Origin: an uncultured archaeon
GTDB taxonomy: Archaea; Hadarchaeota; Hadarchaeia; Hadarchaeales; Hadarchaeaceae
Direction: 5' to 3'
Assembly: GCA_937921735.1 (NCBI GenBank)
Contig: CAKZTQ010000039.1
Coordinates: 1 to 29,841 of the forward strand
DNA: 29,841 nt
The translations under genes and the position numbers were made by a program. Every line of letters starts with the position of its first letter. Position 1 is the first letter of the stretch. The notes beneath the pieces were generated by a model. It was not told the origin of the DNA. It was given only the letters and a program-made list of their open reading frames with translations, and ran no database searches. Shown here piece by piece: positions 5,585 to 24,130 of this stretch.

Positions 5585-6730
5585 TCAAAAGGAAATCCTC
5601 TCGGCCCTCCCGAGGGCTTCCTCCAGCAGGGGGGCAAGGTCCAGCTTTCGCTCCGCCTCCAGGACTCGACCCAAATCCGCGCGGGTCTCCGGGCGCTTCG
5701 GCGCCGCCGCGCAGGGCATCGCCCGCTCGGTGGAAACCTCGTGGGTGCCCAACCTCCTCGCGATCCTTTCTACCTCCACCTTGTCCAAGCCGAGCAGCGG
5801 ACGGAAGACCGGCAGGTCGACGGCGGCGTCCAGCACGCGGAGGTTCGCCAGCGTCTGGGAGGCTACCTGCCCCAGCACCTCGCCCGTGACGATGCCGAGC
5901 GCCCCCTCCCTGGCGGCGACCATCTCCGCGATCCTATACATGCCCCGCTTGCAGAGCAAGCAGGTTAGTCGCCTGGGCGCCCGCTCGACGATCGCCCGCA
6001 ACACCTCGCCGTACGGGACGACGTACATCGCCATCTTCCCCCCCGCCGCCCAATCGCTCAGCGCCCTAGCCGCAGCCATCGCTCGCGCCCTGGCGTCGGA
6101 GTAAGGCCTGGCGTCGAGGTGGACCAAGACCGGCCTGCAGCCCCGCTTCATCATCAGCCAGGCGGCGACCGGGCTATCGATGCCGCCCGAGAGCAACGCG
6201 ACGACCGTGCCCTGCGTGCCCAAGGGCAGGCCGCCGGGGCCTTGAAGCACCTCCGTGAAGACGTACGCGCTTTCCCCCCTGACCTCTATCGAGATCTCCT
6301 CGTCGGGGGCGGAGAGGTCGACCCTAACGCCGGGTATCGCCGCTAGGATGGCCGAGCCCACCGCGGCATCCACGTCCCTGCTCGTGAACTCGTGCTCGCC
6401 CGCCCTGCGGGTGCGGACCGCGAAGCTCATGCCTGGCTCCAAGACCTTCTTGGCGACGTCCACGGCGGTCGAGGTCATCCCCTCAAGTGTGGCGCGCGTT
6501 TTGACCGCGGGGCTGACGGAGACCACGCCCGGTACTCTGACCAAGCGCTCGATCGCCTCGTCCGCCGAGGGCGTCTCGACGAATATCCTACCGCGCTCTC
6601 CCCTGAGCTCGTGATCGATGCCCTTCAGCGCCGCCTTGATGTTCTCGACCAAACATCGCTCGAACCTCCTGCGCACGCGCTCGCTCTTGAGCGCCAGCTC
6701 GCCGTAGCGCACGAGGATCGTCTCGACCAT
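5585..6730 (-). CDS. thiI: tRNA 4-thiouridine(8) synthase ThiI (archaeal Fe-S type, no rhodanese domain)
   Basis: N-terminal RYGELALKS, THUMP domain, GPGGLPLGTQG, PP-loop LSGGIDSPVA, CLLCKR plus a distal Cys, GEVLGQVASQT, RPL. Confidence 0.95.
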   Translation of the reverse strand: MVETILVRYGELALKSERVRRRFERCLVENIKAALKGIDHELRGERGRIFVETPSADEAIERLVRVPGVVSVSPAVKTRATLEGMTSTAVDVAKKVLEPGMSFAVRTRRAGEHEFTSRDVDAAVGSAILAAIPGVRVDLSAPDEEISIEVRGESAYVFTEVLQGPGGLPLGTQGTVVALLSGGIDSPVAAWLMMKRGCRPVLVHLDARPYSDARARAMAAARALSDWAAGGKMAMYVVPYGEVLRAIVERAPRRLTCLLCKRGMYRIAEMVAAREGALGIVTGEVLGQVASQTLANLRVLDAAVDLPVFRPLLGLDKVEVERIARRLGTHEVSTERAMPCAAAPKRPETRADLGRVLEAERKLDLAPLLEEALGRAERISF

Positions 6731-8405: not shown

Positions 8406-8497
8406 GCCAGCTGAAAGCGTGTTAGCCCTATTGCCGCCACCTCGAAGTGAATTTATTTAGCGCGACGCGTCATTCAACCTGTAGAACCGGTGAAAGG

Positions 8498-9688
8498 ATG
8501 GAGATAAACCTCGATAAGTACAAAAACCTGCGCCGAGAGATCGACGAGGGCTGGATAAACCTCCATCCGATCCAGCGGGGCGGGATGCTTCCTCCCGAGA
8601 CCAGGCAAGCCCTGCTCTCCTTCGGCGACGGCTACAGCGTCTGCGATTACTGCTTGGAGGGGCGCGTCGACCTCCTGAAGAAGCCGCCGGTCAAGGATTT
8701 CGCCGAGGATGTAGCGAAGTTCCTCAACATGGACGAGGTGAGGTTCACCTCGGGCGCCAGGCACGCGAAGGCGATAATCTTCGGCTGCCTCGCGGAGCCA
8801 GGCGACACCATCGTCATCGACTCGCTCTCGCACTACACCACCTACATCGCCGCCGAGCTTCGTGGCCTGAGGATAGCGGAGGTGCCACACACGGGCTATC
8901 CCGAGTTCAGGATCGAGCCAGACGCCTACGCGGCGAAGGTCGAGGAGGTGAAGAGGGAGACCGGCAAACCCCCCGCGGCGATCCTGCTCACGCACGTGGA
9001 CTACAAGTACGGAAACCTCGCCGATGCCGCTTCGGTCGCGAGGGTAGCCAAGCAGCATGATGTGCCCTTCATCCTCAACGCCGCCTACACGGCCGGCGTC
9101 ATGCCGGTGGACGGCAAGCAGCTCGGCGCGGACTTCCTGACCTGCAGCGGGCACAAGTCATGGGCGGCCTCGGGGCCCATAGGCATCCTCGCTGCGACCG
9201 AGGAGTTCGCGGACAGGGTCTTCAGGAAATCCTCGATGCGAGGGCCGTGGAGCGGGCGGACCTTCCCCCAGAAGGAGGTATGCCTGTTCGGCTGTCCCCC
9301 CGTCTTCGGCACCCCCATAGCGACGCTGATGGCCAGCTTTCCGCACGTCGTCGAGAGGGTGAAGCGCTGGGACGAGGAGGTCGAGAAGGTGAGGTGGCTC
9401 GTGAGGGAGCTGGAGAGGATCGAGGGCTTCCGCCAGCTGGGCGAGCGGCCGAAGAGACATACCCTCGCCACCTTCGAGTCGCCCTCCTTCCACCGGGTCG
9501 CGAGGGAACACAAGCGGCGCGGGTTCTTCCTCCACGAGGAGCTCAGGAAGAGGAAGATAGCCGGCATACACCCGGGCATGACCAAGCTGATAACGCTGAA
9601 CACCTACGGCCTGGGCATGGACCAGCTCCGAAAAGTCGCGGACGCATTCCACGAGATAGCCAAATCTTACAATATCGAGATTAAGTAA
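8498..9688 (+). CDS. pscS: O-phosphoseryl-tRNA:Cys-tRNA synthase (SepCysS)
   Basis: INLHPIQRGG, GDGYSVCDYC, GAR, SHYTTY, SGHKS (PLP Lys), GC motif, GIHPGMTK; ATG at 8498 follows GGTGA. Confidence 0.93.
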   Translation: MEINLDKYKNLRREIDEGWINLHPIQRGGMLPPETRQALLSFGDGYSVCDYCLEGRVDLLKKPPVKDFAEDVAKFLNMDEVRFTSGARHAKAIIFGCLAEPGDTIVIDSLSHYTTYIAAELRGLRIAEVPHTGYPEFRIEPDAYAAKVEEVKRETGKPPAAILLTHVDYKYGNLADAASVARVAKQHDVPFILNAAYTAGVMPVDGKQLGADFLTCSGHKSWAASGPIGILAATEEFADRVFRKSSMRGPWSGRTFPQKEVCLFGCPPVFGTPIATLMASFPHVVERVKRWDEEVEKVRWLVRELERIEGFRQLGERPKRHTLATFESPSFHRVAREHKRRGFFLHEELRKRKIAGIHPGMTKLITLNTYGLGMDQLRKVADAFHEIAKSYNIEIK

Positions 9689-16782: not shown

Positions 16783-17043
16783 CTTTACCTCCTCAGCTTT
16801 TGCCCGATGAAGGGGGTTCCCTTGTTGCATCGGATAACCTTTGCGGTATCCATCTTCGATAGCACGTCGATCCGCCGACGCTGGACGTCATCGCTAAGCT
16901 CAACAAACCCCCTGCCATATTTTTCCGTTTGGTTTTTATATGCTTTTTAAGTGGGAAATTTCTCTCGACTCTATCTGCTGGTGAGTCCAAAATCGGGTCT
17001 AAACTTTATAATTGCATCGAGCCTAACAATAGGGGGTGAGCAG

Positions 17044-18060
17044 TTGGCGATAACGGTAAAGTTCTTCGCCAGCTTTAGGGAAGCCACCGGGAAAGAACAG
17101 GAGACCATAGAGGGAGCAGCTAATGTGGCATCGCTGCTCGAGCAGCTGACGAGAAGATTTGGGGATAAACTAAGTAGATTACTCTACGAGCCGGGCACGA
17201 ACAAACTGCGCGATACCGTCAATATCCTCGTAAACGGTCGGGGGATAAACCTATTGAGCGGGTTACGGACCGAACTGAAAGACGGCGACGTGGTGGCGAT
17301 CTTCCCGCCGGTTTCCGGAGGGGCGGCATTGACACCGGAGGAACTGGAGCGGTACAACCGCCAAATCATCATCTCGGGCTTCGAGAAACGGGGACAGCGA
17401 AAACTGAAGAGGGCACGAGTGCTCGTGGCCGGGCTGGGCGGCCTCGGCAGCCCGGCCTCCGCTTATTTGGTCGCGGCTGGCGTTGGGCACCTCACCATCC
17501 TAGATGCCGAGCAGGTGGAGCTGAGCAACCTCAACAGGCAGATACTGCACTGGAGCTCAGACGTGGGAAGACCGAAAGCAGCGTCGGCGATCGAGAAGTT
17601 ATCTAAGATGAACCCAAACGTGGAGCTGGAGGGCAGGCCGGAGGCGGTGACACGGGAAAACGCGGACGAGCTCGTGGAAAGCGTCGACGTGGTCATAGAT
17701 GGCATGGACAATTACCACGCCCGCTACTTACTGAACGAGGCCTGCGTGCGAAGGCAAGTCCCGTTCATCCACGGCGCCGTTGAGGGCTTCGTGGGCCAAA
17801 TGACCACTATCATACCCGGCGAAGGACCGTGCCTCAGGTGTATTTTCCCTAAGGAGCCGCCCTCGGCGCAGGTCCGTCCGGTCTTGGGCCCAACGCCGGG
17901 GGTGATGGGCTGCCTCCAAGCGATGGAGGCCATCAAGCTCATCGTGGGCATAGGAAAGCCGCTCGTGGGGCAGATGCTGCTCTTCGATGGCGGGGAAATG
18001 GTATTCGACTTCATCCAAGTCCGCAGGGACCCTAACTGCCCGACCTGCGGGGATGTTTGA
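17044..18060 (+). CDS. In-frame fusion of a SAMP/MoaD ubiquitin-like domain (..IFPPVSGG) and a ThiF/MoeB/UbaA E1-like adenylyltransferase
   Basis: TTG at 17044 follows GGGGTGA. ITVKFFASFRE...VNILVNG...LKDGDVVAIFPPVSGG continues without a stop into RYNRQ, GLGGLG, SNLNRQ, DGMDN, CLRC and CPTC. Confidence 0.92.
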   Translation: MAITVKFFASFREATGKEQETIEGAANVASLLEQLTRRFGDKLSRLLYEPGTNKLRDTVNILVNGRGINLLSGLRTELKDGDVVAIFPPVSGGAALTPEELERYNRQIIISGFEKRGQRKLKRARVLVAGLGGLGSPASAYLVAAGVGHLTILDAEQVELSNLNRQILHWSSDVGRPKAASAIEKLSKMNPNVELEGRPEAVTRENADELVESVDVVIDGMDNYHARYLLNEACVRRQVPFIHGAVEGFVGQMTTIIPGEGPCLRCIFPKEPPSAQVRPVLGPTPGVMGCLQAMEAIKLIVGIGKPLVGQMLLFDGGEMVFDFIQVRRDPNCPTCGDV

Positions 18061-18533: not shown

Positions 18534-19601
18534 TTGCGCCAAGTCGTCGAAACCCGCTACGGCTCGCTGCTGCTGGGCGAGATGCCCAAGGGTTGCAAGC
18601 TCTGCATCAAGGGCGCCAAGCTCGTGCTCTTCGTCACCGGACTTTGCGACCGGGGCTGTTTTTACTGCCCGCTGTCCGAGAGGCGCAGGAGGAAAGACGT
18701 CGTCTACGCGAACGAGCGCCCAGTTAGGTCGCAGCGGGACATAATCGAGGAAGCCAAGCTCATAGATGCCCTCGGCACGGGTTTGACGGGAGGCGACCCC
18801 GCGGTGAGGTTCGAGCGCGCCCTGCGCTACCTTCGGCTCCTTAAGCGAGCGTTCGGCAAGCGCCACCACGTCCACATGTACGTCGGCCGCCAGCTCTCGT
18901 CGAGGCAGCTGCTCAGGTTGCGACGGGCTGGGCTAGACGAGCTCAGATTTCACACTTGGTCGGCAGAACCGGTCGAGTTGGCGCTAGATGCTGGGTTGAA
19001 CGCGGGAGTCGAGATCCCTGCCATACCTGGTGAATTCCGGAGGATCGTGATGCTGCTCCGAGAGCTCGACCGCATCGGTTGCCCTTTCGTTAACCTGAAC
19101 GAGCTGGAGTTCTCGGATACCAACCTGCGTGCGCTCAAGGTGAGGGGCTTCGACATCAAGTCGGATGAGTCGATGGCGGTGAAGGGCAGCGAGGAGCTCG
19201 CGCGGAAGGTGCTCGAGTGGGCCCGAGGCACCGACCTCAACATCCACTATTGCCCCAGCGCCCTCAAGGATGGAGTACAGCTACGCAACCGGTTGAAGCG
19301 GAGGGCCAGAAACGTGGCTAAGCCTTACGATGTCATCACCGAGGACGGCTTGTTGGTAAAGGGGATCGCCTACGATATACCGCCGTCGAAGCTAGCGGAG
19401 GTGCGGAGGAGGTTGATGAGGGACTACGATATCCCCGGCGACCTGATAGCGGTCGACAGACAGAAGCAAAGGCTGGAAATGGCTTGGCACGTTGCGGAAG
19501 GGCTGGCCAAGTTAGAACCGAGCATGAAATTTGCACTCGTCGAGGAATACCCGACGTACGATCGCCTAGAAACTACCTTCGTGCCCCTCCATACCAACTA
19601 A
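18534..19601 (+). CDS. Uncharacterised archaeal radical SAM protein (COG2108-like)
   Basis: GCKLC..GAKLVLFVTG, CDRGCFYC (CxxxCxxC), TGGDP, GLDELRFH, NLNELE.S. Confidence 0.88.
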   Translation: MRQVVETRYGSLLLGEMPKGCKLCIKGAKLVLFVTGLCDRGCFYCPLSERRRRKDVVYANERPVRSQRDIIEEAKLIDALGTGLTGGDPAVRFERALRYLRLLKRAFGKRHHVHMYVGRQLSSRQLLRLRRAGLDELRFHTWSAEPVELALDAGLNAGVEIPAIPGEFRRIVMLLRELDRIGCPFVNLNELEFSDTNLRALKVRGFDIKSDESMAVKGSEELARKVLEWARGTDLNIHYCPSALKDGVQLRNRLKRRARNVAKPYDVITEDGLLVKGIAYDIPPSKLAEVRRRLMRDYDIPGDLIAVDRQKQRLEMAWHVAEGLAKLEPSMKFALVEEYPTYDRLETTFVPLHTN

Positions 19602-22452: not shown

Positions 22453-22579
22453 TGGTAGCCCCGCCCGGAATTTCGTCGAGCGATTTCGAACCGGGGTCGG
22501 CGGATCCAGATTGCGGCCCAGGGGGTGTCCGCCAGGATTGACCATTGGGCCCGACTTTGTCGGCCTACCCCACGGGGCT
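22453..22579 (-). tRNA. tRNA-Gln(CUG) with three BHB introns (15/16, 32/33, 59/60) and encoded CCA
   Basis: Removing 22545-22564, 22511-22526 and 22470-22484 gives a 76-nt cloverleaf: AGCCCCG TG GGGT AGTGGTCAA TCCT G GCGGA CTCTGGA TCCGC CGAC CCCGG TTCGAAT CCGGG CGGGGCT ACCA. Confidence 0.93.
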
Positions 22580-22605: not shown

Positions 22606-22612
22606 ATTTAAA
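22606..22612 (-). promoter_or_regulatory. Probable TATA box of tRNA-Gln(CUG)
   Basis: TTTAAAT on the minus strand, 27-33 nt upstream of tRNA position 1. Confidence 0.5.
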
Positions 22613-23800: not shown

Positions 23801-23983
23801 TCAACCGCCAGCTAACCTCGCTTGATGTCTCTTGAGCTCCAAGTAGTCGGTCAACACTAGCGCCCCTTGGATTATCAGGAACAACCCCACGATCCACCGA
23901 AGGAGATCAGGAAAAATTATGACCAGCAGTCCGAAGATGATGCAGATCGCCGCTAGGGCCGGCTTGGAAATCGTTACCCCCAT
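23801..23983 (-). CDS. Small two-TM protein (DUF3096-like)
   Basis: IIFGLLVIIFPDLLRWIVGLFLII.G; ATG at 23983 chosen because the longer ORF start lies inside the tRNA. Confidence 0.7.
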   Translation of the reverse strand: MGVTISKPALAAICIIFGLLVIIFPDLLRWIVGLFLIIQGALVLTDYLELKRHQARLAGG

Positions 23984-24034
23984 TTCCCTCAGCCCCTTTT
24001 CCACCACGGCCACTTCCTCACCCCGCTCCTCTAA

Positions 24035-24130
24035 TGGTAGCCCCGGCCGGATTCGAACCGGCGTCGCGGGCTCCAAAGGCCCGCAGGATTGACCATTGGG
24101 CCCGACTTGGTCGGCCTACCCCACGGGGCT
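24035..24130 (-). tRNA. tRNA-Gln(UUG) with one BHB intron at 15/16 and encoded CCA
   Basis: Removing 24096-24115 gives 76 nt: AGCCCCG TG GGGT AGTGGTCAA TCCT G CGGGC CTTTGGA GCCCG CGAC GCCGG TTCGAAT CCGGC CGGGGCT ACCA. Confidence 0.95.

Follow-up and report, generated by a model that had tools for sequence, protein, structure and literature searches.

Three short BHB introns at non-canonical positions in the tRNA-Gln(CUG) gene of a Hadarchaeales archaeon

The sole tRNA-Gln(CUG) gene of an uncultured Hadarchaeales archaeon is very probably matured by the removal of three short BHB introns, each cut by the splicing endonuclease EndA, and by the joining of its exons by the ligase RtcB. The gene lies on contig C39, the whole of which (29,841 nt) was analysed and is called the window here. 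The source is a metagenome-assembled genome (MAG) of 1.06 Mb in 60 contigs, with 57% G+C, 83% completeness and 0.5% contamination. HypD from the window shares 92% identity with its counterpart in a Candidatus Hadarchaeales MAG; of the 16 loci that rank next, nearly all belong to Hadarchaeota. The SepCysS gene (window 8447–9688, plus strand) matches TIGR02539 at 517.8 bits, against a cut-off of 365. A first-pass annotation of this DNA had described a Hadarchaeota-like gene set with SepCysS; the TIGR02539 match and the HypD neighbours, which are Hadarchaeales MAGs, bear this out.

Removal of the three inserts in silico leaves 76 nt, which ARAGORN identifies as tRNA-Gln(ctg). All four arms of this product are regular: the acceptor stem has 7 bp and the T stem 5 bp, the T loop is normal, and CCA is at the terminus. 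The unspliced 127-mer receives no call from ARAGORN, and it is missed by the Rfam tRNA model at the gathering score in the window and at E values up to 1 across the whole genome. Pfam detects no family in the ORFs that overlap the gene. The first-pass annotation had reported a tRNA-Gln(CUG) with three BHB introns, none of them at 37/38, and had warned that standard callers might overlook it. In silico splicing, motif geometry and orthologues agree with that description, the intron sizes and their sites (Sprinzl numbering) hold as given (Table 1), and ARAGORN and Rfam both prove blind to the unspliced form. The lack of a spliced product together with an intact copy elsewhere had been named as the finding that would count against the annotation; ARAGORN, Rfam, DNA search and a relaxed BHB scan turned up no further tRNA-Gln(CUG) in the assembly, although at 83% completeness an extra copy could be unassembled. 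A search of sequencing runs listed no RNA run containing this gene. Contigs were obtained from four runs: the DNA run from which the genome probably derives, a hot-spring DNA run, and two that are labelled metatranscriptomic yet flagged 'probably DNA'. These contigs carry the gene in its unspliced form with no joint over any intron, and are uninformative on expression.

Table 1. Features of the tRNA-Gln(CUG) gene and of other intron-bearing tRNA genes of the source genome. Positions refer to the window unless a contig is given; families are those of the 20 genomes examined.
Feature	Position	Strand	BHB helices (central; inner h'; outer h)	Carriers among 20 genomes	Basis or remark
tRNA-Gln(CUG) gene, 127 nt including encoded CCA (22453–22455)	22453..22579	-			In silico splicing and ARAGORN
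Exon 1 (tRNA positions 1–15)	22565..22579	-			In silico splicing, BHB scoring
Intron 1, 20 nt, site 15/16, D loop	22545..22564	-	H4; 5 bp; 0 bp	20/20, families f1, f2 and f5	BHB scoring, folding, orthologues
Exon 2 (positions 16–32)	22527..22544	-			In silico splicing, BHB scoring
Intron 2, 16 nt, site 32/33, anticodon loop	22511..22526	-	H4; 3 bp; 1 bp	13/20, family f1 only	BHB scoring, folding, orthologues
Exon 3 (positions 33–59, contains anticodon CUG)	22485..22510	-			In silico splicing, BHB scoring
Intron 3, 15 nt, site 59/60, T loop	22470..22484	-	H4; 2 bp; 5 bp	10/20, family f1 only	BHB scoring, folding, orthologues
Exon 4 (positions 60–76)	22453..22469	-			In silico splicing, BHB scoring
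TTTAAAT, TATA-box-like, ~27 nt upstream of the mature 5' end	22606..22612	-			Sequence reading; putative promoter
tRNA-Gln(UUG) paralogue, 96 nt with CCA, one intron at 15/16	24035..24130	-			BHB scoring, DNA search
tRNA-Asn(GUU), 174 nt, introns at 8/9, 37/38 and 59/60	C1:2546-2719	-			Missed by ARAGORN and Rfam
Initiator tRNA-Met, 158 nt, introns at 30/31, 38/39 and 59/60	C21:33217-33374	+			Missed by ARAGORN and Rfam

In BHB scoring, each of the three introns has a fully paired central helix (4/4 bp) between two 3-nt bulges, with cuts falling after the second base of each bulge. The motifs quoted in the first-pass annotation, GGGT AG|G...GCCC AA|T, GCGG AC|A...CCGC AA|T and TTCG AA|A...CGAA AT|T, are all present. 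The central helix of intron 1 pairs D-stem bases 10–13 with the 3′-end of the intron; with no outer helix, this is a relaxed HBh' motif. Intron 2 pairs anticodon-stem bases 27–30 with its 3′-end, and its single outer base pair is followed by a U.U mismatch and then by 3 bp. Intron 3 pairs T-loop bases 54–57 with its 3′-end, the T stem serving as outer helix, while its inner stem, short in the source genome, reaches 3–5 bp in most relatives. None of the three is a strict hBHBh' motif: the outer helix is absent from intron 1 and stops at 1 bp before the mismatch in intron 2, and the inner helix of intron 3 has only 2 bp.

When the local segments are folded singly, the minimum-energy structure is the BHB for each intron (for intron 2, its central and inner helices), and the three motifs do not overlap, so that they can form simultaneously. 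Two results of folding the whole precursor count against the proposed maturation. The structure with all three BHB motifs has an energy of −44.0 kcal/mol at 37 °C, against −51.9 kcal/mol for the minimum-energy structure, which is a different fold and 7.9 kcal/mol more stable; and relative to shuffled sequences the minimum energy is not lowered (z-score −0.03).

Transcription of the minus strand would yield a precursor of ~127 nt. For each intron, four bases of the exon just 5′ of the cut would then pair with four bases near the 3′-end of the intron, placing two 3-nt bulges four base pairs apart. EndA, probably as a homotetramer of its 182-residue subunit, would cut after the second base of each bulge, and RtcB would join the four exons into the 76-nt tRNA. 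As the motifs do not overlap, no fixed order of splicing would be required. EndA would, however, have to accept a relaxed motif, since intron 1 lacks an outer helix; for the same reason, the relaxed-specificity EndA suggested by the first-pass annotation may fairly be inferred.

One EndA gene was found in the source genome, on contig C32; its product, of 182 residues, is matched over its full length by TIGR00324 (132.1 bits; cut-off 59.6). The gene adjoins that of tryptophanyl-tRNA synthetase, the latter named by reading the ORF translation. RtcB is encoded on contig C15 (E 1.1e-182). EndA is a single-unit protein that consists of one N-terminal domain and one catalytic domain; its best solved relatives are the enzymes of M. 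kandleri (5x89, E 5.6e-47), ARMAN-2 (4fz2, E 5.1e-40) and M. jannaschii (1a79, E 1.2e-38). From its likeness to the last of these, it most likely forms a homotetramer. The first-pass annotation had looked to the subunit type and specificity loop of EndA; typing returned a single-unit, alpha4-like gene, in which the crenarchaeal (CSL) and ARMAN-2 (ASL) loop inserts are lacking. In the alignment with the A. pernix alpha subunit, the Hadarchaeales protein lacks the 9-residue insert that holds K44 (the CSL). Aligned with ARMAN-2, the ASL region is ungapped, so that by that alignment no insert is missing, and the protein is 5 residues shorter before the catalytic His. Against M. jannaschii there is no insertion of more than one residue.

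The catalytic Tyr, His and Lys do not vary among 12 Hadarchaeales EndAs, and neither does a GKPL(S/T)GG(K/R) loop. At the CSL/ASL site, the loop exceeds that of M. jannaschii by 2 residues and carries an invariant Lys, and for these two reasons an ASL-like role is possible for it. The nearest EndAs outside the phylum are also single-unit proteins, from Woese-, Nano- and Aenigmatarchaeota and Hydrothermarchaeota. A second loop, RG(E/V/I)(K/R)PGE, within the Tyr-x9-His stretch, is common to Hadarchaeales and Woese-/Nanoarchaeota EndAs and equals its M. jannaschii counterpart in length. A loop around the catalytic His was placed there by Hirata et al. 2012 (PMC3488258) and later called L3, under which name the available text of Kaneta et al. 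2018 (PMC5829648) describes it for DPANN and Hadesarchaea; the shared (K/R)PGE loop may correspond to L3.

It could be that the gene is real and that the single EndA is insufficient, broad specificity being supplied by an unrecognised or unassembled second subunit or by another nuclease. In the available text of PMC5829648 and PMC6379350, the enzymes tied to cleavage of relaxed motifs are those of the (alpha-beta)2 and epsilon2 types that have specific loops, the former source giving it as shown only for these. This counts against cutting by a single-unit EndA of intron 1, without an outer helix, and of intron 3, with its 2-bp inner stem, and at 83% completeness the source genome may be missing an endonuclease subunit. 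Such an arrangement nevertheless appears unlikely. Of 41 Hadarchaeales genomes, 38 contain a PF01974 match that exceeds the cut-off of the model (open frames of 174–239 aa), among them all 23 that are at least 90% complete, and the strong match is single in 37 of the 38; the other genome, G017, has two and is 3% contaminated. An EndA protein search of the source genome at E values up to 10 returned no second subunit, only EndA itself. The beta-subunit model NF007085 likewise pointed to the same locus alone, below its cut-off, with a weak control (matches in 3 of 14 genomes, none over the cut-off). Weak PF01974 matches occur in three genomes (G011, G021 and G022), of which that in G011 was inspected; the 359-aa ORF there was rejected as a second subunit, reading like a primase/LigD-polymerase domain.

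A more specific proposal can be drawn from the sequences, to which about an even chance of being right is given. An alpha4-type EndA without a CSL/ASL insert, which is the only splicing endonuclease seen in those 38 genomes, would cut relaxed HBh' introns such as the 15/16 intron, conserved in all 20 genomes examined. If so, broad specificity would be independent of both subunit architecture and the two known loops, and the determinant would be either the GKPL(S/T)GG(K/R) loop at the CSL/ASL site or the (K/R)PGE loop that precedes the catalytic His and is shared with DPANN enzymes. A single-unit EndA that lacks both characterised loops, combined with introns nested in their distribution (20, 13 and 10 of 20 genomes), offers a clean natural system for alpha4-type cutting of relaxed motifs.

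Thermoproteales tRNAs with up to three short BHB introns, in the D-, anticodon- and T-arms, have reportedly been described by Sugahara, Fujishima and colleagues. The introns of this group are often relaxed HBh' motifs and are missed by standard callers, and its EndA is a heterotetrameric (alpha-beta)2 enzyme with a Crenarchaea-specific loop. The Hadarchaeales EndA differs in being a single unit and in lacking that loop, as judged against the A. pernix alpha subunit. ARMAN-2 (Micrarchaeota), another small-genome archaeon, resembles the present case in its non-canonical introns, including some in the T loop (Hirata et al. 2012, PMC3488258), and its epsilon2 enzyme is among the best structural matches of the Hadarchaeales EndA (4fz2). 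It differs in its three-unit protomer of 395 aa and in a pre-His loop that is 5 residues longer in the alignment. Methanopyrus kandleri, the source of the best PDB match (5x89), has a D-arm HBh' intron in pre-tRNA-Glu(UUC) and an EndA without CSL/ASL; according to the available text of PMC5829648, however, its enzyme has two subunits, such introns are few and cutting is inefficient, whereas the Hadarchaeales have one subunit and many introns.

The closest precedent comes from the same lineage. Kaneta et al. 2018 (PMC5829648) predicted the tRNA genes of Hadesarchaea archaeon YNP_N21 and linked the alpha4-type EndA of Hadesarchaea with marked tRNA gene disruption. As in the present genome, a single-unit EndA there accompanies many non-canonical and multiple tRNA introns. 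The first-pass annotation had taken this to be a lineage not known for tRNA intron gain, which this earlier survey contradicts, and the phenomenon of intron-rich tRNAs with a single-unit EndA in Hadarchaeota is already published in outline. For YNP_N21 there is a survey figure; the tRNA-Gln(CUG) gene, its three sites, their distribution over 20 genomes and the covariation are absent from the text sections and the Figure 7 legend of that paper (PMC5829648). Judged by title or abstract, no other paper on tRNA introns in Hadarchaeota or Hadesarchaea was found, and a 2026 Asgard preprint makes no mention of the Hadarchaeota lineage.

A DNA search of 41 related genomes gave matches in 31, and loci were returned and examined in 20. 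The tRNA-Gln(CUG) gene is present in all 20, and splicing each orthologue in silico at the same sites yields a 73-nt tRNA-Gln(CUG). The exons are near-invariant across these genomes. The distribution of the introns is nested, the carriers of the 59/60 intron lying within those of the 32/33 intron and these within those of the 15/16 intron; in genus g8, the 59/60 intron is both present and absent. Central helices are paired in every carrier (20/20, 13/13 and 10/10 for introns 1, 2 and 3), and compensatory changes are seen in 3 of 5, 3 of 3 and 1 of 5 inner-stem pairs, respectively. In alignment A1, paired cells make up 93.3%, where shuffles average 87.9%; the covariation score reaches 0.116, where shuffles give 0.043. 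None of 500 shuffles was as high on either measure. Pairing falls to about 51–54% when the partners are slid by one column. As related genomes are not independent, these figures on pairing and covariation express constraint, not probability. On an RtcB tree of 35 genomes, arbitrarily rooted and with a topology that does not match the family labels, intron 2 corresponds to one change and intron 3 to four, at least three of them forced; no order of events is drawn from it. The nested series could be used for dating tRNA intron gain or loss.

The tRNA genes of the source genome were surveyed with a SPLITS-like scan, in which BHB candidates were combined with T-arm and acceptor anchors and ARAGORN served as the final judge. 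A strict scan of both strands of the 1.06-Mb assembly returned 21 loci, all of them tRNA genes and none spurious; in a relaxed scan, 4 of 36 loci were spurious. The strict result, with the conservation and covariation in relatives, shows that the inserts of tRNA-Gln(CUG) exceed what chance would give. Ranking solutions by the fewest introns was misleading, because ARAGORN accepts long variable arms, and the 16 intron-bearing loci were curated by hand. The census comprises 35 archaeal-type tRNA genes, 16 of which carry 26 introns; the lineage is rich in tRNA introns, as the first-pass annotation had suggested. Ten introns are at 37/38, two at 38/39 and 14 elsewhere, so that 16 of the 26 are not at 37/38. 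The 14 lie at 8/9, 15/16 (two), 20/21 (two), 21/22, 23/24, 30/31 (three), 32/33 and 59/60 (three), positions in the D loop being approximate. About a dozen isoacceptors were not found in the assembly, which is partly expected at 83% completeness. Since standard callers miss the tRNA-Gln(CUG), tRNA-Asn and initiator tRNA-Met genes, Hadarchaeota MAGs will appear to lack essential tRNAs.

Invisibility to standard callers is also what would be seen if the gene were a decaying tRNA pseudogene with chance insertions. Such decay is highly improbable, given that the exons are near-invariant and the helices kept in 20 genomes, that compensatory changes fall inside the introns, that this is the only tRNA-Gln(CUG) gene found in the assembly and that other tRNAs of the genome have inserts at the same positions. 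The gene is almost certainly functional. Fewer than three true introns (with, for example, the 15-nt T-loop insert retained) or other splice registers can be set aside with similar assurance: ARAGORN does accept some two-insert solutions with a long variable arm, and intron 3 of the source genome has a weak inner stem, but the alternative solutions yield incorrect anticodons and poor cloverleafs, intron 3 combines a perfect central helix with the T stem as outer helix and has longer inner stems in most relatives, and the 59/60 site is also used, as H4 h'6 h5, in tRNA-Asn and initiator tRNA-Met.

The 20-nt intron of the tRNA-Gln(UUG) paralogue (window 24096–24115) differs by one base from intron 1 of tRNA-Gln(CUG). 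ARAGORN miscalls this gene as Leu(caa) or Pro(tgg), and Rfam covers only part of it (24038–24102). In two runs, summed contig depth rises to ~1200–2000 over its 3′ half (window 23948–24081), a jump that most likely reflects conserved tRNA exon sequence from many organisms and not a signal of the locus. The 60-nt intron near 37/38 of tRNA-Asn on contig C1 fits a standard BHB poorly; its best register has a 3/4 central helix, and it can form an 8-bp stem with the 3-nt bulge on the wrong side. Beyond the 35 genes counted, contig C24 carries adjacent tRNA-Ile(GAT) and tRNA-Ala(TGC) genes (C24:1600-1823) that are bacterial-looking and resemble an rRNA-operon spacer, and this contig is probably a contaminant of the bin.

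The RtcB ORFs of five related genomes (G003, G026, G037, G034 and G039) are 636–973 aa long, with matches that begin only at query residue 32–52, a pattern that an intein-like insertion close to the N terminus would explain. The RtcB genes of G004 and G015 contain 30 extra bases with in-frame stops. Elsewhere in the window, a protein of >1387 aa, open at the contig end (2–4162, minus strand), contains CBM96 and many Ig-like domains and looks like a surface or adhesin-type protein. A fused ThiS-ThiF protein of 369 aa is encoded at 16951–18060 (plus strand), with an unnamed radical-SAM gene just downstream (18534–19601, plus strand), and ThiI is encoded separately at 5585–6730 (minus strand).
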